DNA of 64,000 nucleotides from Spirochaetia bacterium (GCA_963662265.2 CAXXHA010000032.1:64001-128000), one strand, 5' to 3'. Numbered from the stretch's first letter, positions 1,338-64,000 are shown. Translations and numbers: made by a program. The notes: generated from the letters alone by a model not told the origin.

Positions 1338-1447
<110 letters not shown>

Positions 1448-1711
1448 TAATTTTTTTCACTCAGGTTTTTAACATTTATCAGGATTGTTTGCAAGTAACT
1501 TTATCAAATTACCCTGAAAACTCCTTTTTCAGTTAAAAACTAAAGCAAAAAGCTTTTTATGTTTTTATCTCTGCAAGTATTAAAAGCACCACACTTACAG
1601 AAAATTGAGAATAGGTCGCTGCCTATCGGCAGTACCCTTCCTCGCTTCGGCAATGTATGTACAAGCACATCCATTGCTTATCAAGATTCGAGAATGAGTT
1701 AAATAATAATA

Positions 1712-4700
<2,989 letters not shown>

Positions 4701-4923
4701 TATTATTTTTTAACCCTTCTCTTATCAAAAACACCAGATTTATTTCTAAATCCTTATATGTGTTAATGTTTATCTATTAAAGAACATTGCTGTTTTCACA
4801 GCTATAAACATGAATCTAAAGAAAATCTTTCAGATTCATATAAAAGTAAAAACTAAAAATATCAAATATCTCCATTCTCTACTTTAAAAAAAAGCAGTTA
4901 ACTTTCGTTTTCCACTATTTTCT

Positions 4924-4997
4924 TGGAGGCACGGGGACTCGAACCCCGGACCCCCGGCTTGCAAAGCCGGTGCTCTAGCCAACTGAGCTATGCCCCC
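4924..4997 (-). tRNA. tRNA-Ala(TGC) in the 16S-23S spacer of operon 1; CCA not encoded
   Basis: GGGGGCATAGCTCAGTTGGCTAGAGCACCGGCT-TGC-AAGCCGG...GTTCGAGTCCCCGTGCCTCCA cloverleaf. Confidence 0.95.
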
Positions 4998-5188
4998 ATG
5001 ATTGCATGAACAAGCAGTAACTAAAGGTTACAACCAGCCCATACCCGGGTATTAACCCGTACCGAGGATTTCTCCTCATTATATATAAAAAAGTTTCCTG
5101 AAGCGGATCCGGATCTAATTAAAGACCCAATTTTGTAATTCAAATAAATGAACTACTGTATCCAGTACATTTGGATAATTACCTTTCT

Positions 5189-6736
<1,548 letters not shown>

Positions 6737-11530: not shown

Positions 11531-11640
<110 letters not shown>

Positions 11641-11904
11641 TAATTTTTTTCACTCAGGTTTTTAACATTTATCAGGATTGTTTGCAAGTAACTTTATCAA
11701 ATTACCCTGAAAACTCCTTTTTCAGTTAAAAACTAAAGCAAAAAGCTTTTTATGTTTTTATCTCTGCAAGTATTAAAAGCACCACACTTACAGAAAATTG
11801 AGAATAGGTCGCTGCCTATCGGCAGTACCCTTCCTCGCTTCGGCAATGTATGTACAAGCACATCCATTGCTTATCAAGATTCGAGAATGAGTTAAATAAT
11901 AATA

Positions 11905-14893
<2,989 letters not shown>

Positions 14894-15031
14894 TATTATT
14901 TTTTAACCCTTCTCTTATCAAAAACACCAGATTTATTTCTAAATCCTTATATGTGTTAATGTTTATCTATTAAAGAACATTGCTGTTTTCACAGCTGTAA
15001 GCCTGAACTATCATTTTCAGATAATTCATTT

Positions 15032-15105
<74 letters not shown>

Positions 15106-15346
15106 ATTTGCATCCGAGATCGTTCCCCGATGCGCAGCACCTGCGGTACGACTCGTTGGCGGGCAGCAAATCAAAGATTTGTGACCAGCCCATAAATGGA
15201 GATCAACTGTACAAACTATTGCTCAACAATCTCCCATTATATATAAAAAAGTTTCCTGAAGCGGATCCGGATCTAATTAAAGACCCAATTTTGTAATTCA
15301 AATAAATGAACTACTGTATCCAGTACATTTGGATAATTACCTTTCT

Positions 15347-16894
<1,548 letters not shown>

Positions 16895-54681: not shown

Positions 54682-55320
54682 TTATTCAGAGCGGTGCTTC
54701 AGCATTACTGACATTATCGCGTACCCTTCAGAAAGATCTTCTTCAGTAACAATAATATCATCCGGCAGCTGCAGTTTTGCAGGGGAAAAATTCCATATAG
54801 CTTTTATTCCCGAATCAACCATTTTTATCGCGGCTGCCTGTGCATTTGCAGAGGGTACAGATAATATCCCGAGTTCTATATTGTTTTCCCTGATATAGTC
54901 ATAAAGTTCATTCATGTTATGTATTCTTACAGATCGAACTGTTTTCCCGGTTTTTTCGGGATTATTGTCGAATGCCGCAATTATCCTCAGTCCATGCCGT
55001 TTAAATTCATGATATCCAAGCAGCGCCTCTCCAAGGGAACCTGCCCCGACCAGTACAGCCCTGGTATCCCTGTCCCACCCGAGGAATTCTTCGATTGAAG
55101 CGATCAGATCCTTGACCAGGTATCCTCTCTTGGGCCGTCCTACAATATTGGTAAATGTAAGATCTTTTCTTACCTGTATTGAATTTAAATTAAGCCTGAA
55201 ACCTATATCTGTTGCAGATATCCATTCAAAATCCATCTGGTCATACTCATAGAGAAGCCTCAGGTAATATGGGATTCTCCTGATTGTAGGGACCGGGATA
55301 TCAACATTTTTATTAATCAT
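54682..55320 (-). CDS. rex: Redox-sensing transcriptional repressor Rex
   Basis: PTIRRIPYYLR, QVRKDL, G...RGY, VGAGSLG, IWNFSP. Confidence 0.93.
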   Translation of the reverse strand: MINKNVDIPVPTIRRIPYYLRLLYEYDQMDFEWISATDIGFRLNLNSIQVRKDLTFTNIVGRPKRGYLVKDLIASIEEFLGWDRDTRAVLVGAGSLGEALLGYHEFKRHGLRIIAAFDNNPEKTGKTVRSVRIHNMNELYDYIRENNIELGILSVPSANAQAAAIKMVDSGIKAIWNFSPAKLQLPDDIIVTEEDLSEGYAIMSVMLKHRSE

Positions 55321-55349: not shown

Positions 55350-55382
55350 AAACAGCACTTCCGTGACAGGAAATGCTGTTTA
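55350..55382 (-). terminator. Hairpin between the OCD-like gene and rex, likely end of the hydroxyproline operon
   Basis: AAACAGCACTTCC-GTGACA-GGAAATGCTGTTT. Confidence 0.65.
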
Positions 55383-55412: not shown

Positions 55413-56384
55413 CTAGAAATCAATTTCAAATCCTATCTTTTTTTCCCTGCATTTTTCATAAACAGCTTTTGCAGCGTAGAGGTCAAACAATGCCATACCC
55501 ACTGTCTTGAAAAATGTTGTACCGTATTCGCCTCTTTCAGGTTCTCTTCCTGAATTTATGAAATTTCCAAGAGTTTCAATCTGATCCTCTTTTATTGTTC
55601 CCTCTTCAAGGGGAATGAGAATTTCACCTGATTCCTCTTTTGCAAAATCAATATCCACCCAGACCTTATCTGTCAGGCTGAATATTGCATCGGTGAATTC
55701 CCTTACTTCAGGCTGAAAAGATCCCACAGCAACGAAATGCTTATTCTTCAAAAGTTCAGGATCATCAGGAATTACAGGATCCTTTGCAGTTGTTGTAGTA
55801 ATAACTATATCAGATTTTTCAATCAGTTCATTTACTGTTTCTGAATGAAAGACATTAAGCTCGGGAAGAGCCTCTTTGAGCCTGTCTGTAAAAGCCGGGA
55901 GACCTTCAGGAAACATATCATACAAGTACACATTTTTAATATTTCTTGCACTGCATGCAGCAATAACCTGATAAAACCCCTGTACACCACAGCCGATTAT
56001 ACCGAGTGATTCAGAATCCTTTCTTGAATGATGTCTTACACTCACACCCCCGCAGGCACCTGTTCGAAGTGCAGTAATAATTTTCCCATCCATTATTGCG
56101 AGGATTTCTCCCGTATCCGGATCATTAAGCATTATTCCGCCGTTGATTGTAGGCTTGCTGTATTTTTTATTCCCCGGAAACAGGGTAAGTATTTTTGTAG
56201 CTATATCGCCCTTTGCCACACATGGCATCAGTAGCAGTGAATTGCTATCCTTGCAGTCAATTGTGACACGTTCAGGCATTATATAATCTTTTGATTCATA
56301 TATTCTGAGAGCCTCTTCCACACTGTCCATGATTTCATTCATTGTTACAGCTTCCAAAATATTTTTCTGGTTCAGTATTATCAT
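55413..56384 (-). CDS. Ornithine cyclodeaminase/mu-crystallin family protein (imine reductase or cyclodeaminase)
   Basis: LLMP, TKILTLFPGN, ITALRTGA, IIGCGVQG, VGSF, FKTVGMALFD. Confidence 0.88.
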   Translation of the reverse strand: MIILNQKNILEAVTMNEIMDSVEEALRIYESKDYIMPERVTIDCKDSNSLLLMPCVAKGDIATKILTLFPGNKKYSKPTINGGIMLNDPDTGEILAIMDGKIITALRTGACGGVSVRHHSRKDSESLGIIGCGVQGFYQVIAACSARNIKNVYLYDMFPEGLPAFTDRLKEALPELNVFHSETVNELIEKSDIVITTTTAKDPVIPDDPELLKNKHFVAVGSFQPEVREFTDAIFSLTDKVWVDIDFAKEESGEILIPLEEGTIKEDQIETLGNFINSGREPERGEYGTTFFKTVGMALFDLYAAKAVYEKCREKKIGFEIDF

Positions 56385-56404
56385 TATCCTTTCCTTAATT
56401 ATCC

Positions 56405-57967
56405 TTATTTATCCTTTAATTCCGCCTCTATTTTTTTCGAGGTCTTTGTAATTGACAATCCGCCTAGTGCTGTGCAGCGCAGTTCGCATGGAATACTCTT
56501 TCCCACTTTATCCATGGTATCAATCACCTCATCAACACTGACTACATGATCAAATCCTGCAATTGCCATATTTACAGAAGATAAAGCATTTGAAGCAGCC
56601 ATTACATTCTTACCCAGGCATGGAACTTCAACCCTGTTGGCAACAGGATCACAGATCATTCCGAGAATATTCTGAAGCGCCATTGAAACAGCTGCCAATG
56701 ACTCATTCAGTGGCAGATCGGCAATTGCAGAAAGAGCAGCAGCAGCCATCCCGGATCCTGCTCCGCATTCAGCCTGGCACCCCCCCACTTCTGCTGAAAA
56801 AGTTGCATGCTGTGCTATGAAAACGCCTATCATTCCGGCAGCAAGCAGGGCTTTAGCCATTACATCTTCCGAAAGGTTCATTTCATCAGCCGCACCTATT
56901 ACAGCTCCGGGGAGGCCTCCGCAGGATCCGGCTGTGGGAGCAGCCACAATTACACCCATGGAACTTTTAATCTCCATCAGTGCTGTTGTATAAAGTATTA
57001 TCCTGTTTAAAAGCCCGCAGTTAAGAAGTTCATCACTGTCCATTTTCGCCTTGAAACTGCCTGACTGATAACCGAGTATTCTGTCGCGGTATTCTGTTCC
57101 GGCAATCCCCGCTCTAATGGATTTCCTTAAAACAGCAACAATATCTTTCATCTTCACGAATACTTCATCTTTTGAAATATTTCCCCTTGCAGATTCATAT
57201 TCGAGTGCAAGTTCCCAGAGTTTAATATTTCTGCTGCTGTTGTATTTCTTCATTTCATCAGCAGTAATAAACGGAACAGATATATTTTTTCTTGAAAGAA
57301 CAGGCAGGACAGGTTTCAGCTCCCGGATTTGTCTGATTTCATATTTTTCAGCAATTTCCTGTTTTATACTGTCCGGCAGAAAAGATGATGATTTAATTTC
57401 AAAAAGACAGCCATTCCTGCTTTCAGTCTTAACAATAAATTCATGATCTGTTTGTCTTTCAAGATAATCATCTATTTCACTGTCATATTTATCTGTAAAA
57501 ACAAGTGTCTCAAAATAGTCTCCGCAGACAGATATTTCAAAACCGTCTATATCAACTATCTCAATCATACCGCCGCCTGTTGAGACAGCAGTTATTCTAT
57601 GTGATTCAGTCTTGTTGCTGAGTATTATCAGGTATGTATTCGGATGATCATAATTGAGTTTTTCAATTTGGATATCAATATCAAGCCCGGCTTCTTCAGC
57701 TCCCTTTAAATAGTCTACAAGTCTTTCATCAGAAGGCTCCCATCCCAGGAACCCTCCGAAAAGCCCCATATCAGAGCCCTGTGTATCATGAGTTGTGGCA
57801 AGAGAACCATCAGGATCGAATTTTATAGTTATATCTGATATTTCACCACCCATAAGGTCTCTTGCCAGAAGGCCGATTCTTACAGAAGCGGCACAGTGGG
57901 AACTCGAAGGCCCCCTCATAACAGGTCCGATCACATCGTTGAATATACTTGGATACATTTTTACCAC
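56405..57967 (-). CDS. [4Fe-4S] L-serine dehydratase-family enzyme, fused beta+alpha chains
   Basis: GPVMRGPSSSHC (beta); STGGGMI; IVAAPTAGSCG, GGCQAECG, LGMICDPVANRVEVPC, RCTALGGL (alpha, cluster Cys present). Confidence 0.85.
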   Translation of the reverse strand: MVKMYPSIFNDVIGPVMRGPSSSHCAASVRIGLLARDLMGGEISDITIKFDPDGSLATTHDTQGSDMGLFGGFLGWEPSDERLVDYLKGAEEAGLDIDIQIEKLNYDHPNTYLIILSNKTESHRITAVSTGGGMIEIVDIDGFEISVCGDYFETLVFTDKYDSEIDDYLERQTDHEFIVKTESRNGCLFEIKSSSFLPDSIKQEIAEKYEIRQIRELKPVLPVLSRKNISVPFITADEMKKYNSSRNIKLWELALEYESARGNISKDEVFVKMKDIVAVLRKSIRAGIAGTEYRDRILGYQSGSFKAKMDSDELLNCGLLNRIILYTTALMEIKSSMGVIVAAPTAGSCGGLPGAVIGAADEMNLSEDVMAKALLAAGMIGVFIAQHATFSAEVGGCQAECGAGSGMAAAALSAIADLPLNESLAAVSMALQNILGMICDPVANRVEVPCLGKNVMAASNALSSVNMAIAGFDHVVSVDEVIDTMDKVGKSIPCELRCTALGGLSITKTSKKIEAELKDK

Positions 57968-57973
57968 CTGTTA

Positions 57974-58780
57974 TCAGCCGAGTTTTGAGGCTTTTTCTCT
58001 GCAGGCCCTTACAGCATCTATGACAGAATATCTGAAACTGTTTTTTTCAAGAACCTGAACTGCCTCTATAGTTGTACCGCCCGGTGAACAGACCATGTCT
58101 TTAAGTTCGCCCGGATGCTTTCCTGTTTCCCTTACAACTCTGGCTGAACCGAGTACAGCCTGAGATGCAAGCTTATATGCAGTTGCCCTTGGAAGTCCCT
58201 CAAGGACTGCCCCGTCTGCGAGAGCTTCTATAAACATATAGACATATGCCGGAGATGAGCCTGAAACAGCAGTACAGACATCAATATACTTCTCATCAAT
58301 TACTTCTGTTAAACCGAAGCTCTGGAATATTTTTTCGACATATCCCAGTTCTTCATCTGTTACATTCCTGCCCCTGCAGAGAACGCTCATCCCTTCTCCG
58401 ACAAGAGCGGGAGTGTTAGGCATTGTCCTGATGACTTTAACAGGGAATGAGAAGTATTTCTCAACCGATTCAACAGTTATACCTGCTGCAATTGTAACAA
58501 TGACTGTTTTCTCAGACACCTTTTTATTGATTTCATCAAGAACATACTTGTATATATCCGGCTTTACAGCAAGAATTATTATTTCTGAATTCTCAGAAAG
58601 CCTGCAGTTATCAGCAGTCACATCAATTCCCGGAAAATCCTTTTCCATTAAAGAAAGAGATTCCGGGTTTTTATCAGAAACAATTATTTCGCCGGCACAG
58701 GCAAAACCGGAGGATATAATTCCCCCGATAATTGCCCGGCCCATGTTTCCGGTACCAATTATTCCTATTTTATATTTCAT
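57974..58780 (-). CDS. proC: Pyrroline-5-carboxylate reductase
   Basis: IGTGNMG, LAVKP, RTMPNTP, SGSSPAY, VCSPGGTT. Confidence 0.96.
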   Translation of the reverse strand: MKYKIGIIGTGNMGRAIIGGIISSGFACAGEIIVSDKNPESLSLMEKDFPGIDVTADNCRLSENSEIIILAVKPDIYKYVLDEINKKVSEKTVIVTIAAGITVESVEKYFSFPVKVIRTMPNTPALVGEGMSVLCRGRNVTDEELGYVEKIFQSFGLTEVIDEKYIDVCTAVSGSSPAYVYMFIEALADGAVLEGLPRATAYKLASQAVLGSARVVRETGKHPGELKDMVCSPGGTTIEAVQVLEKNSFRYSVIDAVRACREKASKLG

Positions 58781-58802
58781 TTAAACACCTTTATCTTAAG
58801 TT

Positions 58803-61166
58803 TCAGCAGCCGAAATTCTGTTCAGTACGGTTGATAATCTCATCCTGAAGAGGTTTTTCAAGATTATTGAAATAATCGCTGTATCCTGCAACTCGGACAA
58901 TAAGATCTGAATACTGTTCAGGATTCTCCTGTGCCTTGAGCAGAATTTTCTTGTCAACAACATTGAACTGAATATGATGACCATCAAGTTTGAAATAAGA
59001 TCTTATCAGGGCAACTAGTTTGTCAATATTACTGTCCCCCTCAAGAACAGACGGAGAGAATTTCTGGTTGAGCAGGGTTCCTCCTGTTCTCAAATGGTCC
59101 ATTTTGGCAGCAGATTTCACTACAGCTGTAGGCCCGTTTCTGTCAGCATCTGTAGCAGGAGAAATACCTTCAGAAAGAGGCATACCGCTCTTCCTTCCGT
59201 CAGGTGTTGCACCGATTACTGAACCGAAATAAACATGGCATGTTGTAGGAAGCATGTTGATTCTGTACTGTCCACCATTCATTGTAGGTCTTCCGTCAAC
59301 AGAATCAAAATATGAATCAAAAATCATCTTCATCAGGTCATCAGCATAATCATCATCATTTCCATATTTGGGAGTCTTGTTCTTGAAGAGATTATGGATG
59401 GAAGGATCCTGAAAATCGTTATCAAGCGCTTCAAGAAGCTCTTTCATGGAAAGATTTTTTTCATCAAAGACATGTTTTTTTATGGAAGAAAAACTGTCAG
59501 TAATAGATCCTATACCTACTCCCTGAATATATCTCGTGTTATACCTGGCCCCGCCTGAATTATAATCTTTTCCCTCTTTAATACAGTCATCTATAATTAC
59601 AGAGAGAAAAGGTACCGGCATATAGTTGGAATAGATTTTCTCAATTGTATTATTGCCGTGAATCTTGATATTTATGAAATAATCCAGCTGCTTCTTGAAA
59701 GCATTGAAGAAATCATCAAATGACTGAAAATCTTCTGCTTTTCCTGTTTCAAGACCGAGTTTTTTACCAGTCATTTTATCAAGACCGTTGTAAAGAGTAA
59801 TTTCCATTATCTTGGTCAGGTTCATGTAGCCTGTAAGGATATATGATTCTTTACCGAATGCGCCTGTTTCAACACATCCGCTTGTTCCGCCGTCACGGGC
59901 ATCTTCAATTTTCTTTCCGGCTCTAACCATTTCAGAGACAACAGCATCAGCATTAAAAACTGAAGGCTGACCCCATCCCTCACGGATAACTTCGCATGCC
60001 CTTTTTACAAACTTGTTTGGATTCTTCTTGCTTACCTGTACATTTGAACTGGGCTGAAGAAGATGCATATCGCTTATAACATCAAGAACAAGGTAGGTAA
60101 CATCATTTACACCATCTTCCCCTTCTGCAGTAAGCCCGCCTGAATTGATATTGGCAAAATCTGTATATGTACCACTTTCCTTCAGAGTCACACCTACTTT
60201 TGGAGGTGCAGGCTGATTATTGAACTTGACCCAGAGGCATTCAAGGATTTCCCTTGCCTGATCCCTGTCGAGAGTTCCCTCTTCTGTTTCCTTTCTGTAA
60301 AAAGGATAGAGGTGCTGATCAAGCCTTCCGGGATTAAAGGAGTCCCAGTTATTCATTTCAGAAACAACAGCTATATGAACAAACCAGTACATCTGGACAG
60401 CCTGCTCAAATGTTTCAGGCGGATAAGCTGGTACTCTTCGGCAGTTGAGAGCTATTTTTTCAAGCTCACTCTTTCTGACCGGATCTTTTTCAGAAGCTGC
60501 CTTTTCCGCAGCATAATCAGCATAACGCCCGGCATACTTCATGATTGCATCACAGGTAACAGCCATTGCATCAAGCTGTTCCTTTTTTTCAAATGCTTTG
60601 GGATCATTCAGAAAATCAAGTTCTCCCGCAGCTTTTTCTATATCTTTTTTGAAATCAAGAAAACCTCTTTTATATATCTTACCATCAGCAACAGTATGGC
60701 CGGGGCCCCTCTGCTCCATGAATTCTGTGAAAATTCCTGCTGAATAACATTCTTTCCATTCATCAGTCATGGAAGAGAGTATTTTACCTCTCAAAGCCCT
60801 GTTTTCCCAGAAAGGAATTATTTCATTTTTCTGATACTCAAAAATTTCATCAGATACTTTATAGGAAATTTTCTTCCTTTTATTCATTATCTCGAAATCA
60901 TCCAGAGTATGACAGCATAATTCAGGATATGTGGAAGTGGCAGCAGGCCTCTCACCTCTTTCGCCGACTATAATTTCTCCATCATTAATACAGAGCTCCT
61001 TGTTTTCCATAATATTTTTAAAAACAAGAGCCCGCAGCATTGGGATTGATACTGTTCCTTCATATTTTTTATAAACTTCAGTAACAAGTTTAGCTCTCTC
61101 TATAGAAATACTCGGGACAGCGTTTAGACTCTGTTCTCTGAGCTTTATTACCCTTTCATTCATCAT
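58803..61166 (-). CDS. hypD: Glycyl radical enzyme trans-4-hydroxy-L-proline dehydratase
   Basis: 787 aa; EQRGPGH, WDSF, ESGTYTDF, SGCVE, LTGY, LPTTCH and RVAGY match HypD active-site motifs; adjacent proC. Confidence 0.88.
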   Translation of the reverse strand: MMNERVIKLREQSLNAVPSISIERAKLVTEVYKKYEGTVSIPMLRALVFKNIMENKELCINDGEIIVGERGERPAATSTYPELCCHTLDDFEIMNKRKKISYKVSDEIFEYQKNEIIPFWENRALRGKILSSMTDEWKECYSAGIFTEFMEQRGPGHTVADGKIYKRGFLDFKKDIEKAAGELDFLNDPKAFEKKEQLDAMAVTCDAIMKYAGRYADYAAEKAASEKDPVRKSELEKIALNCRRVPAYPPETFEQAVQMYWFVHIAVVSEMNNWDSFNPGRLDQHLYPFYRKETEEGTLDRDQAREILECLWVKFNNQPAPPKVGVTLKESGTYTDFANINSGGLTAEGEDGVNDVTYLVLDVISDMHLLQPSSNVQVSKKNPNKFVKRACEVIREGWGQPSVFNADAVVSEMVRAGKKIEDARDGGTSGCVETGAFGKESYILTGYMNLTKIMEITLYNGLDKMTGKKLGLETGKAEDFQSFDDFFNAFKKQLDYFINIKIHGNNTIEKIYSNYMPVPFLSVIIDDCIKEGKDYNSGGARYNTRYIQGVGIGSITDSFSSIKKHVFDEKNLSMKELLEALDNDFQDPSIHNLFKNKTPKYGNDDDYADDLMKMIFDSYFDSVDGRPTMNGGQYRINMLPTTCHVYFGSVIGATPDGRKSGMPLSEGISPATDADRNGPTAVVKSAAKMDHLRTGGTLLNQKFSPSVLEGDSNIDKLVALIRSYFKLDGHHIQFNVVDKKILLKAQENPEQYSDLIVRVAGYSDYFNNLEKPLQDEIINRTEQNFGC

Positions 61167-62068
61167 CAGCCTCCAATTTCAGCTTTTATACCTGCAGTAT
61201 CAAAAATATTTTTTATACGTTCCATACGTTTATCTGATGGCACGGTATTTTCAGACATCTGATACTTTTTTTCAATTCGGTTGTATTTTGACTCGGCAAA
61301 ATTATTATAAGGCAGCAGACTCACTTTAATGACTTTTACAGTTTTCAGGATTTCCACTGTTCTGTTCCAGTTTTCATCATATTCATTGAAACCGGGAATA
61401 ACAGGTATTCTTATAAAAATATCCTTCCCCATTTCGGAAAGCATTTTAAGATTCCTTATTATTACTTCATTTGAAACACCTGTAAAATCTCTGTGTATTT
61501 CATTATCAACTGCTTTAAGATCATATAAAAACAGATCAATATATTCTGCCAGATCTTTTATTATATTTTCAGAAACATAACCTGAAGTATCAACAGCTGT
61601 ATGTATTCCCTTTTCCCTGCATTTCACAAGTAATTCTTTTAGAAAATCATGCTGCATAAAGCATTCCCCGCCGGAAAAGGTTACCCCGCCGTTTGATTCT
61701 TCATAGAAAATACTGTCCTTGAGAATCTCTTTCATGACATCAGTCACAGACATTTCTTCCCCGCAGATTTCTCTGGCGCCATGAGGACAGAATAAAGCAC
61801 ATTTTCCGCATTTCAGACACTTGTTTCTGTCTGTTACAGGATATCCGTTTTCTATTGTGATTGCATTATTTACGCATTTTGACATGCAGACTCCGCATCC
61901 TGTACATCTGTTTTTCAGAAAAATCAAATCAGGCATAAGACTCTGGCTTTCTGGATTATGGCACCATAGACAGGACAAAGGACAGCCGTTAAAAAAAACT
62001 GTTGTTCTTATGCCAGGTCCATCATGAACTGAATATTTCTGAATATTCATAACAATACCTTTCTGCAT
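61166..62068 (-). CDS. Glycyl-radical activating enzyme for HypD (radical SAM with a 2x[4Fe-4S] ferredoxin insert)
   Basis: HDGPGIRT, GCPLSCLWCHNPES, CTGCGVC...C and CLKCGKC...C, GGVTFSGGE. Confidence 0.93.
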   Translation of the reverse strand: MQKGIVMNIQKYSVHDGPGIRTTVFFNGCPLSCLWCHNPESQSLMPDLIFLKNRCTGCGVCMSKCVNNAITIENGYPVTDRNKCLKCGKCALFCPHGAREICGEEMSVTDVMKEILKDSIFYEESNGGVTFSGGECFMQHDFLKELLVKCREKGIHTAVDTSGYVSENIIKDLAEYIDLFLYDLKAVDNEIHRDFTGVSNEVIIRNLKMLSEMGKDIFIRIPVIPGFNEYDENWNRTVEILKTVKVIKVSLLPYNNFAESKYNRIEKKYQMSENTVPSDKRMERIKNIFDTAGIKAEIGG

Positions 62069-62101
62069 AATCTCAACTCCTTCAGTTATTATAAACTATA
62101 T

Positions 62102-62126
62102 ATTACTGCTGCACAGCAGCAGTAAT
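62102..62126. other. Perfect 11-bp intergenic hairpin between the transporter and activase genes (mRNA stability or partial terminator)
   Basis: ATTACTGCTGC-ACA-GCAGCAGTAAT. Confidence 0.6.
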
Positions 62127-62136
62127 TTGATTTTAT

Positions 62137-63327
62137 CTAGAATATCATCATGAGAATATTTGCAATAATACCGGCAGTTACACCTGCAAGCAGCTGGATG
62201 TTTATTGCAAGACCGACAAATTTTTCACTTTTGAAGCTTTCCATCATTGCAACATGTGTGCAGAGGAATCCTGCAAAAGTAATACCAATCGCTGTGTATA
62301 CTGCAACATCTCTTGAAACAATAATTCCACTCTTTATAAACTCGGGGATAAGACCGAGAGAAGCACCTACACTTCCGAGAGCTGTTACAGGAAAAGCAAT
62401 AGCTTCAGGATTTGAAAAACCGAAAAGCGGTTTTAAAACAGGAGCTGCAAGCTTGCCGAGCCATGGAATAAGACCGATTCCCTCGTAGGGAAGACCCTGA
62501 TATCCAAGTGAAGGATCTGCAACACCTTTAGTGAGAAGCATTATGAATGTACAGATTACAAGAACAGCAGCAATCAGTGATATACCGAGTTCAACACCAT
62601 ACTGTCCACCTTTAACCCCTGCATCAAGAAATCTCATTGCAAAACTCTTTTTCTGCTCATTGGCAGCCTGATTTTCCTCAGCTTTTTTTTCATTTTCAAT
62701 ATCAGCTTCATCCATGAAATCTTCAGGATTTACAAAATCAGTTCCAAGAGCCTTCTTTGTTTTAATCATCATTACACGGATACCTACAGCGCATCCAAGG
62801 AATGCAGCAATATTACCTACAACAGCCTCTTTAACAAATCCCTGGCCGATAACAAATGTTGTAACAATAAGTCCCATACCAGCGGTTGTTCCGAGAATTG
62901 TAAGACACGGTACCTGATGTTTTCTGAAATAAGATGAGAATTTTCTGTCTTTCATAAGAGGACAGATAGCAGGATTATCAGAAATATAGCTTACAGTAGC
63001 ACCGAGAAAAGACGCCCCGGGTAAACCGTAAAGCGGTTTCATCATGGGTGAAAAAATCTTATCAAGTATTTTAAGAAATTCGAACTCACTGGCAACTCTT
63101 CCCATAGCCCCTGCAATTACAGCAACAGCAAGAATATAAAAAGATGTGCTCATAAGAAGATCATATGCTGTTTTCATCATGGTTGAAAACAAGTTTGCCA
63201 CACCCATTTTTGTTACAAGAGCAGCAAAAAAAGCAGCAACAATGACTGTAAAAATCACAAGACTTTTCATGTCATTAATTTTATTCCGGGAATCATTTTT
63301 AATCCCTGCAACATTTCCAGTTGTCAT
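62137..63327 (-). CDS. Multi-pass membrane protein resembling the clostridial CD0519/CD1768-type family; probable (hydroxy)proline transporter
   Basis: TMMKTAYDLL, PLYGLPGA, SDNPA, YEGIGLIPW, AIAFPVTALGSVGA, THVAMM. Start at ATG 63327 after GAAGGAG. Confidence 0.7.
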   Translation of the reverse strand: MTTGNVAGIKNDSRNKINDMKSLVIFTVIVAAFFAALVTKMGVANLFSTMMKTAYDLLMSTSFYILAVAVIAGAMGRVASEFEFLKILDKIFSPMMKPLYGLPGASFLGATVSYISDNPAICPLMKDRKFSSYFRKHQVPCLTILGTTAGMGLIVTTFVIGQGFVKEAVVGNIAAFLGCAVGIRVMMIKTKKALGTDFVNPEDFMDEADIENEKKAEENQAANEQKKSFAMRFLDAGVKGGQYGVELGISLIAAVLVICTFIMLLTKGVADPSLGYQGLPYEGIGLIPWLGKLAAPVLKPLFGFSNPEAIAFPVTALGSVGASLGLIPEFIKSGIIVSRDVAVYTAIGITFAGFLCTHVAMMESFKSEKFVGLAINIQLLAGVTAGIIANILMMIF

Positions 63328-63394
63328 AAAAAACTCCTTCAATTTAGATCCAGGTATACCTTTAGATATTTTTTTATTTATTTAAAGCACTTTT

Positions 63395-63533: not shown

Positions 63534-64000
63534 TTATTCTTTTGTATATCTTGATTTAACTTCACGAAGATAGGAATATATTGTGTATTTGGTATTTCCC
63601 AGGATATCTGCAAGATATTCTACAGATCCCTTGAGCTGGAAATAACCTTTTTTATCAAGACTGCTGATTATATACATTTTTTCATTTTTCTTTGTTTTAT
63701 CCAGAGGCTTACCGATTTTCTTCTTTACCTCTTCCAGATATTTATTGATCAGATCATCTGCAAAACCTTCGGTTTCTGTAGCAGAGGCATTGTTTTTTGA
63801 ATAAAAATCATATGAACGGGTCTGAATCATGTCTTTAATAAAGCTTTCTGCAATTTCAGCTCGTGTCATATCATAGTTAATACATAAAAAACCTACAATT
63901 TTTCCTTTATCATCTTTTATACATACAGCACTTGCATTGAGTCTTTTACCGTTTTTAGCAATTTCAAAATAATTCGGAACATAGTCAGCATCCTGCAGCG
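63534..64000 (-). CDS. YheO/DauR-like PAS+HTH transcriptional regulator (5'-truncated by the window)
   Basis: Frame open to the window edge: NYFEIAKNGKRLNASAVYIKDDKGKIVGFLCINYD (YheO PAS) and LDKKGYFQLKGSVEYLADILGNTKYTIYSYL (HTH). Confidence 0.85.
   Translation of the reverse strand, partial: LQDADYVPNYFEIAKNGKRLNASAVCIKDDKGKIVGFLCINYDMTRAEIAESFIKDMIQTRSYDFYSKNNASATETEGFADDLINKYLEEVKKKIGKPLDKTKKNEKMYIISSLDKKGYFQLKGSVEYLADILGNTKYTIYSYLREVKSRYTKE

Follow-up and report, generated by a model that had tools for sequence, protein, structure and literature searches.

We analyzed a 64,000-nucleotide stretch of DNA from a Spirochaetia bacterium (GCA_963662265.2, CAXXHA010000032.1:64001-128000; hereafter the window), which ends within a cluster of genes for hydroxyproline (Hyp) metabolism. 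Six minus-strand open reading frames (ORFs) were confirmed there (Table 1). They encode a membrane protein of the CD0519/CD1768 family, an activating radical SAM enzyme, the glycyl-radical dehydratase HypD, the reductase ProC, a fused protein resembling [4Fe-4S] serine dehydratases (SDH; P0001), and a member of the ornithine cyclodeaminase (OCD)/mu-crystallin family (P0002). The end of the window, at position 128000 of contig C32 in this genome (G000), falls within the gene for a YheO-like regulator, and the cluster goes on for ∼375 nt further to a gene of the proline racemase family, P0123. The full order is PutP, LhpH-type dehydratase (P0123), YheO regulator, transporter, activase, HypD, ProC, SDH-like, OCD-like, and Rex. 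From sequence comparisons, we conclude that the locus is probably an accessory island for converting hydroxyproline to proline, with two branches made up of known enzyme families, neither of which would need P0001.

The gene run is compact. The transporter and activase genes are separated by 68 nt, the activase and HypD genes overlap by 1 nt, and the spacings that follow are 22 nt (HypD/ProC), 6 nt (ProC/SDH-like), and 20 nt (SDH-like/OCD-like). Position 63327, where the transporter gene had been taken to begin, is an internal start, the longest ORF beginning at 63342. Beyond P0002 lies a terminator-like hairpin, a stem followed by UUUUAUAUU, whose folding energy of -21.7 kcal/mol (z = -4.97) was equaled by none of 200 shuffled sequences; it was not among the sites given by a consensus terminator scan. 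The first-pass annotation of this stretch had described a tight run containing HypD and ProC, in which no gap between activase and OCD-like gene exceeds 22 nt and which ends in a hairpin, and all of this was borne out. A second hairpin, found by the terminator scan between transporter and activase, is a possible attenuator that could uncouple expression of the transporter from that of the enzymes. The CD0519/CD1768-family protein is the presumed hydroxyproline importer; homologs 42-43% identical to it precede the activase and HypD genes at the same place in two other HypD loci (L102 and L103).

DNA searches placed this cluster in its genomic context. The segment from PutP to Rex spans ∼12.9 kb in G000, where it is flanked by an acetyltransferase gene at one end and by a HisJ-like gene with a 171-aa ORF at the other. 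In two genomes of the same genus, the distance between these flanks is 1016 bp (G001) or 977 bp (G002), and Rex and PutP homologs lie elsewhere (66-72% nucleotide identity). Because both lack the cluster at that site, the Rex-to-PutP segment is an acquired accessory island. Of 41 relatives, 2 encode a HypD that scores above the cut-off, and the two same-genus genomes are not among them; in a sample of 401 genomes from the class, 8 do. At L102 and L103 the gene order is regulator, CD0519-like transporter, activase, HypD, ProC, and SNF symporter; since these operons stop after ProC and the symporter, the SDH-like/OCD-like pair is an add-on. The available DNA of seven other HypD loci, two of which are very short, contained no SDH-like or OCD-like gene. 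At the HypD locus L105 (G340), a gene of the Cys-Thr LhpH type, whose product shares 53% identity with P0123, again lies beside HypD; this locus represents a different downstream fate of the pyrroline products. Further genes at L105 encode an AraC regulator, a GntR protein, an aldehyde dehydrogenase, and Hdr-like Fe-S/flavin proteins.

Enzymes predicted for 3-hydroxyproline

A family search found a single proline racemase-family (PF05544) gene in the whole genome, at C32:128386-129360, on the same strand as the operon and directly upstream of the regulator. Its product, P0123, is closest among solved structures to 6R76/6R77 (451 bits, E = 3e-134), the trans-3-hydroxy-L-proline (T3LHyp) dehydratase of Thermococcus litoralis (PMC9309405, in its accessible part). 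The human T3LHyp dehydratase, 7QPO, follows at 292 bits. The top NCBIfam family was likewise T3LHyp dehydratase (NF045511), at 367.7 versus a cut-off of 540; other scores were 193.9 versus 550 for NF047722, 340 for proline racemase, and 267 for 4-hydroxyproline epimerase. In the alignment, the catalytic pair of P0123 is Cys109 (in STMCGH) and Thr274 (in DRSSTGSG). The threonine is shared with 6R76 and 7QPO, whereas the racemase 7PB3 has cysteine at this position (DRSPCGTG). Within the proline racemase superfamily, the accessible part of PMC4141209 assigns the Cys-Thr type, which is the type found in P0123, to T3LHyp dehydratase. We infer that P0123 is an LhpH-type T3LHyp dehydratase, predicted to convert trans-3-Hyp to Δ1-pyrroline-2-carboxylate (Pyr2C).

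P0002 provides a predicted enzyme for the next step. Compared with solved structures, it scored 185 bits with 6T3E, the Pyr2C reductase of T. litoralis, 146 bits with the archaeal alanine dehydrogenase (AlaDH) AfAlaDH, and 54.8 bits with a true OCD, 1U7H. Residue roles were taken from the accessible part of PMC4141209 and read onto pairwise alignments. P0002 keeps the R/K-K-R-D tetrad (R39, K64, R107, and D301). At the OCD-specific positions, which in P. putida numbering are the E56/D228/K232 tied to ornithine cyclization (PMC4141209, same part), it has L51/F223/V227, compared with L52/V224/A228 in TlLhpI and R52/D219/K223 in AfAlaDH. The tetrad together with three hydrophobic residues at OCD/AlaDH-specific positions is the TlLhpI-type combination. 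Because P0002 is closest to 6T3E and lacks the OCD-specific residues, it is best read as a predicted imine reductase of the Pyr2C type rather than as a true cyclodeaminase. The E/D/K residues are missing and the 1U7H score is low, and we rejected P0002 as a true OCD; as an AlaDH it was rejected on the residues.

The closest genome ortholog of P0002 (47% identity), in G465, has housekeeping genes as its neighbors and is uninformative. G000 encodes a second OCD paralog, of the D-D-K type, on contig C37. The segment that holds it (L111:271-3989) encodes an M24 peptidase, a pyridoxal phosphate (PLP; PALP) dehydratase-like protein, the D-D-K OCD-like protein, and an M24/creatinase-like protein; it thus contains a second dehydratase-OCD pair in this genome and resembles EutBCD.

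These assignments, which rest on scores, diagnostic residues, and closest solved relatives, suggest the following inferred reactions. In one branch, HypD with its activase would dehydrate trans-4-Hyp to pyrroline-5-carboxylate (P5C), which ProC would reduce to proline; in the other, P0123 would form Pyr2C from trans-3-Hyp, and P0002 would reduce it to proline. Both reductions would spend NAD(P)H, which is consistent with the presence of a Rex gene in the island. The first-pass annotation had proposed that a single locus channels the two hydroxyproline isomers into proline and that the OCD-like protein is a Pyr2C-type reductase, and both proposals are supported by the enzymes predicted here. 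Its 3-Hyp branch beside the 4-Hyp branch also stands, but the assignment of the SDH-like gene as dehydratase of that branch was not supported in that form; it assumed that the cluster holds no known type of 3-Hyp dehydratase, and P0123 lies in the same strand run. Since P0123 and P0002 would make up the known two-step T3LHyp pathway, the SDH-like gene fills no gap.

Table 1. Features of the island and its surroundings; positions are counted from the first nucleotide of the window unless a contig is named.
Feature	Position	Strand	Evidence and remarks
PutP Na+/proline symporter, outside the window			Divergent from P0123; 625 bits vs cut-off 515
P0123, predicted LhpH-type T3LHyp dehydratase, outside the window	G000:C32:128374-129438	-	Upstream of YheO-like regulator
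YheO-like PAS/HTH regulator, cut by window end	63534..64000	-	PF08348 + PF13309; full 244-aa ORF at L113:135-869
CD0519/CD1768-family membrane protein	62137..63342	-	NF049989, 441 bits vs cut-off 300
Palindromic hairpin between transporter and activase	62102..62126	both	Perfect 11-bp stem; terminator scan
HypD-activating radical SAM enzyme	61166..62068	-	TIGR02494, 366 vs 174; NF043069, 423.2 vs 425 (slightly under)
HypD, glycyl-radical trans-4-hydroxy-L-proline dehydratase	58803..61166	-	NF043068, 1450.9 vs 1100 (above cut-off); PF02901 + PF01228
ProC, pyrroline-5-carboxylate reductase	57974..58780	-	TIGR00112, 279.6 vs 196.75 (above cut-off)
P0001, fused beta-alpha [4Fe-4S] SDH-like protein, 520 aa, GPSSSHC clade	56405..57967	-	PF03313, 221 bits; SDH_beta + SDH_alpha
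P0002, OCD/mu-crystallin family	55413..56384	-	PF02423, 191 bits; predicted NAD(P)H-dependent Pyr2C reductase, TlLhpI type
Terminator-like hairpin closing the operon	55350..55382	-	12-bp stem + U-rich tail
Rex redox-sensing repressor	54682..55320	-	NF003994, 258.6 bits vs cut-off 130; final island gene on this side

Elsewhere in the window, the minus strand carries two complete rRNA operons (5S, 23S, tRNA, and 16S) at 1338-6736 and 11531-16894; they are ∼10 kb apart, and the interval contains a TRAP transporter.

The serine-dehydratase-like protein and its clade

P0001 retains the cluster ligands of the [4Fe-4S] L-serine dehydratases (LSDs): C397, C439, and C450 align with C343, C385, and C396 of LpLSD, the GPSSSH loop is present at residues 19-24, and Thr345 is the equivalent of LpLSD Thr290. 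The positions around the catalytic base read differently. LpLSD His61 is the proposed base, and its H61A mutant is inactive (PMC12647591, in its accessible part); P0001 has Gln63 at this position and a histidine, His60, three residues before it. Cys25, which completes the motif GPSSSHC (residues 19-25), aligns with LpLSD Thr20. The scores of P0001 fall under the L-serine dehydratase equivalog cut-offs (TIGR00718, 211.9 versus 243.2; TIGR00719, 120.4 versus 161.2; TIGR00720, 149.1 versus 345.1), and G000 also contains a canonical split sdaAA/sdaAB pair.

No ortholog of P0001 was present among 40 relatives, the top match being a fused form of 36% identity, and a single further match at E <= 1e-90 (40% identity) was found among the 401 class genomes. 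Contig scans returned homologs at 22 genome and 36 metagenome loci, mostly 52-65% identical over full-length matches; outliers were short C-terminal fragments of up to 81% and three distant matches of 31-49%. The hosts include Anaerolineae, Flavobacteriaceae, Gemmatimonadota, Victivallales, and Calditrichia. A protein search gave at least 7999 matches at E <= 1e-30; among the matches listed, the best non-self sequence was 65% identical, and the sources include Asgard archaea, Aminicenantes, and Acidobacteriota. The clade thus crosses phyla at 53-65% identity, and its members are mostly stand-alone genes. In four of five genomes examined, PF03313 is represented by the clade member alone. The apparent 860-aa ORF at L012:7716-10298, in which an SDH-like protein is joined to an arginase-family domain, may be a genuine fusion or an assembly or frame artifact.

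The GPSSSHC motif, which the first-pass annotation had noted in place of the usual GPSSSHT, is not peculiar to this operon and is found in 106 of the 121 best homologs; it is clade-wide, and we rejected it as a marker of a Hyp-linked subclade. LpLSD positions 20 and 61 covary in P0001 and its 120 best homologs, reading C/Q in 107, S/H in 11, F/Q in 2, and C/H in 1. We read these sequences as one clade in which the Fe-S elimination chemistry would be conserved and the catalytic base swapped. The covariation does not name the substrate of the clade.

Neighboring ORFs were scanned at the genome loci (85 of 137) and the metagenome loci (69 of 92), those dropped being mostly second-tier neighbors. 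Most clade neighborhoods are unrelated to Hyp/Pro genes. An OCD-like gene adjoins the clade member at 2 of 22 genome and 2 of 36 metagenome loci, and HypD at 0 of 22 and 1 of 36, many loci being truncated. In three cases (L006, L016, and L094), the OCD-like gene is directly downstream and encodes a hydrophobic triad (L/I, F/Y, and V), the two ORFs overlapping by 8 nt in L016; no LhpH-type gene was found in the available DNA of these three loci. In L068, the OCD-like gene is of the D/K type and on the opposite strand. Only in L088 is HypD the gene immediately upstream of the clade member. Peptidases of the S9/dipeptidyl peptidase IV (DPP-IV) type, PepX, or aminopeptidase P flank members in several lineages. 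DPP-IV (PF00930) does so at 7 of 22 genome loci, six in Flavobacteriaceae and one in Calditrichia, where it is on the same strand as the clade member with a 92-nt gap, and at 8 of 36 metagenome loci; an S9 peptidase gene lies 25 nt upstream in L090, and aminopeptidase P is nearby in L096 and L097. Co-occurrence of the clade with Hyp/Pro genes, the test put forward for the original proposal, therefore fails for most homologs and holds for the minority with an OCD-like gene (L006, L016, and L094) or HypD (L088). The OCD, HypD, and peptidase links lend the 3-Hyp idea some life, and they represent a minority that partly reflects shared ancestry.

Several neighborhoods are worth recording for themselves. 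The metagenome contig of L088 encodes HypD (55% identity), the SDH-like protein (59%), and a sulfite-oxidase-like molybdopterin oxidoreductase, and ProC is not between them. The Flavobacteriaceae loci (L008-L011, L013, L014, L078-L082, and L085-L087) share a synteny of MFS transporter, DPP-IV (divergent), SDH-like gene, and then a convergent gene for X-Pro dipeptidyl peptidase S15 or an Asp/Asn beta-hydroxylase-family protein. In four genomes of the same bacterial family, G010, G013, G009, and G008 (L057, L058, L059, and L060, respectively), we saw a recurrent cluster of a LysR gene, a fused SDH-like gene, an SbnB-like OCD-family gene, a TAXI-TRAP binding protein, an NF005679 'hypothetical' protein, and a fused TRAP permease. 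These SDH-like proteins are 33-36% identical to P0001, with GPSSSNT as their motif and lysine at the His61 position. By analogy, the cluster looks like a module for uptake, dehydration, and reduction of a hydroxylated amino acid, with a logic that we take to be like that of EutABC.

Candidate functions of P0001

Within the two-branch island, we assign P0001 only tentatively, and with somewhat less than even confidence, as an L-serine-type amino-acid dehydratase giving pyruvate, whose oxidation would balance the NAD(P)H spent in the two imine reductions under Rex control. We consider it rather unlikely that P0001 is a second Pyr2C-forming (3-Hyp) dehydratase, and the remaining share goes to action on another beta-substituted amino acid. 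Several observations weigh against the two-branch island with a serine-type P0001. P0123 is below its NCBIfam equivalog cut-off (368 versus 540), and so is P0002 (NF004793, 187.7 versus 322; NF005603, 156.4 versus 266; NF006379, 244.8 versus 417). The genes for P0123 and P0002 are at opposite ends of the cluster, and the SDH-like gene is just 20 nt from that of P0002. The OCD-like, HypD, and proline-peptidase neighbors of the clade fit a plain L-serine dehydratase poorly, as does glutamine in place of the essential His61. Proline reductase profiles (PF09338 and TIGR04483) had no match in G000 or in five other HypD genomes, but the control genomes were unmatched as well, so this negative carries no information.

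The alternative that survives best, itself improbable, makes P0001 an Fe-S 3-Hyp dehydratase with an aconitase X (AcnX)-like role. Its substrate would most plausibly be cis-3-hydroxy-L-proline, which is not accepted by LhpH-type enzymes, and the Pyr2C formed would be reduced by the adjacent TlLhpI-like P0002; on this view, the genes for SDH-like protein and reductase would form a mobile dehydroxylation module added to a HypD-ProC operon. The 20-nt gap, the recurrence of an SDH-like gene followed by a hydrophobic-triad reductase in L006, L016, and L094, the position of HypD in L088, and the HypD operons (L102 and L103) that end before any such pair all favor this. So do the catalytic-base positions unlike those of canonical LSDs in a genome that retains sdaAA/sdaAB, and the DPP-IV, PepX, and aminopeptidase P neighbors in Flavobacteriaceae-like, Calditrichia, and other loci. 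A search of G000 (90.6% complete) for AcnX (PF04412) gave no match. PFL-like and Ser/Thr dehydratase genes are frequent neighbors of LhpI genes, as was pointed out in 2014, when HypD was still unknown (PMC4141209, accessible part). However, a known-type T3LHyp dehydratase, P0123, is already in the cluster, and adjacency of clade members to OCD or HypD genes is rare. Identities of 60-65% from Asgard archaea to Flavobacteria suggest a central and not a niche function, and a clade member is the only PF03313 gene in four of the five genomes examined. Of the five genomes examined, one lacks a PF02423 gene and two lack PF05544; in Polaribacter G401, OCD-like and proline racemase-family genes adjoin each other ∼94 kb from the SDH-like gene; and the S/H minority of the clade retains the canonical base. 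We regard as doubtful the broader claim that previously unrecognized Fe-S 3-Hyp dehydratases make up the GPSSSHC clade or, at a minimum, those of its members that share operons with TlLhpI-like reductases; the cis isomer would be the likeliest substrate and Cys25 the base in place of histidine.

We judge very unlikely a serine-to-alanine redox sink, in which P0001 would convert L-serine to 2-aminoacrylate/iminopyruvate and P0002 would reduce this product, or pyruvate plus NH4+, to L-alanine, using up NADH during growth on peptides. The logic would presumably be that of BhcB/BhcD in the beta-hydroxyaspartate cycle. Judged by family names, alanine dehydrogenases and the iminosuccinate reductase BhcD belong to the OCD family, and the SDH-like/OCD-like genes are tightly paired in several lineages. 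P0002 has the hydrophobic triad and not the AfAlaDH residues, and a place within a hydroxyproline island would be left unexplained. TlLhpI does have measurable AlaDH activity, but its kcat/Km values for alanine and pyruvate are >1000-fold under those of AfAlaDH, and Pyr2C is preferred (PMC4141209, accessible part).

Least probable of all is that the OCD-like gene encodes a genuine ornithine cyclodeaminase, the operon pooling proline from hydroxyproline and ornithine with P0001 an ordinary L-serine dehydratase, for which the Pfam family name and the OCD activity known from clostridia (cited in the accessible part of PMC4141209) speak, and against which stand the L/F/V residues at the cyclization positions, the 55 bits to 1U7H versus 185 to the Pyr2C reductase, and the location of the D-D-K paralog elsewhere in G000.

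Comparison with known systems

For anaerobes of gut and tissue, collagen hydroxyproline is a major source of proline, and the glycyl-radical 4-Hyp route joined in one island to an LhpH/LhpI 3-Hyp route is a combination that we did not find described, although the enzyme families are known. Likewise, we found no description in the literature of HypD joined with 3-Hyp enzymes or with SDH-family enzymes. The histidine reported to be essential in the only solved family member is lacking in a very large group of proteins annotated as L-serine dehydratase, in which two active-site positions covary, and this makes the GPSSSHC clade a cheap, well-defined target for enzyme assays. If it were a clade of Fe-S 3-Hyp dehydratases, thousands of L-serine dehydratase annotations would be wrong, and in anaerobes aconitase X would be replaced by a non-orthologous enzyme.

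The closest precedent for the HypD part is the HypD-ProC operon of Clostridioides difficile and other Clostridia (PMC6219649, accessible part), which is alike in its activase, HypD, and adjacent ProC. The CD0519/CD1768-type membrane protein upstream, here as in L102 and L103, is a further likeness. The island differs in having an LhpH-type dehydratase and a YheO regulator upstream, and SDH-like, OCD-like, and Rex genes downstream. In the accessible part of PMC6219649, the terms serine dehydratase, cyclodeaminase, racemase, and epimerase each have 0 occurrences. LhpH and LhpI of T. litoralis (accessible part of PMC4141209; 6R76/6R77 and 6T3E) are the best solved relatives of P0123 and P0002, and the Cys-Thr pair, the R-K-R-D tetrad, and the hydrophobic residues at the OCD positions are common to both systems. 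Here, the host is a bacterial anaerobe, P0123 and P0002 are split by the HypD module and both score below cut-off, and the cluster is without proline dehydrogenase genes.

With the [4Fe-4S] LSDs (the type 2 LpLSD, 4RQO, and the split type 1 SdaAA/SdaAB), P0001 shares the beta and alpha domains, the three cysteines, the SSSH loop, and the Thr290 equivalent. It differs from LpLSD in having glutamine for His61, cysteine for Thr20, a new histidine at -3, and no C-terminal cysteine, and from the LSDs generally in its sub-equivalog scores and in being fused with the middle domain kept. LSD types 3 and 4 of the Grant laboratory may include the GPSSSHC clade. The aconitase X cis-3-Hyp dehydratase, from a superfamily of Fe-S enzymes, makes Pyr2C in hydroxyproline clusters (PMC5144071, accessible part) and may be a functional analog of P0001. 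The fold and family of P0001 are unrelated to it. In BhcB/BhcD and EutB/EutC, a PLP dehydratase turns a beta-hydroxy amino acid into an imine which an OCD-family enzyme reduces; in the Spirochaetia island, by contrast, the dehydratase beside the OCD-family gene is an Fe-S protein of the SDH family and not a PLP enzyme.

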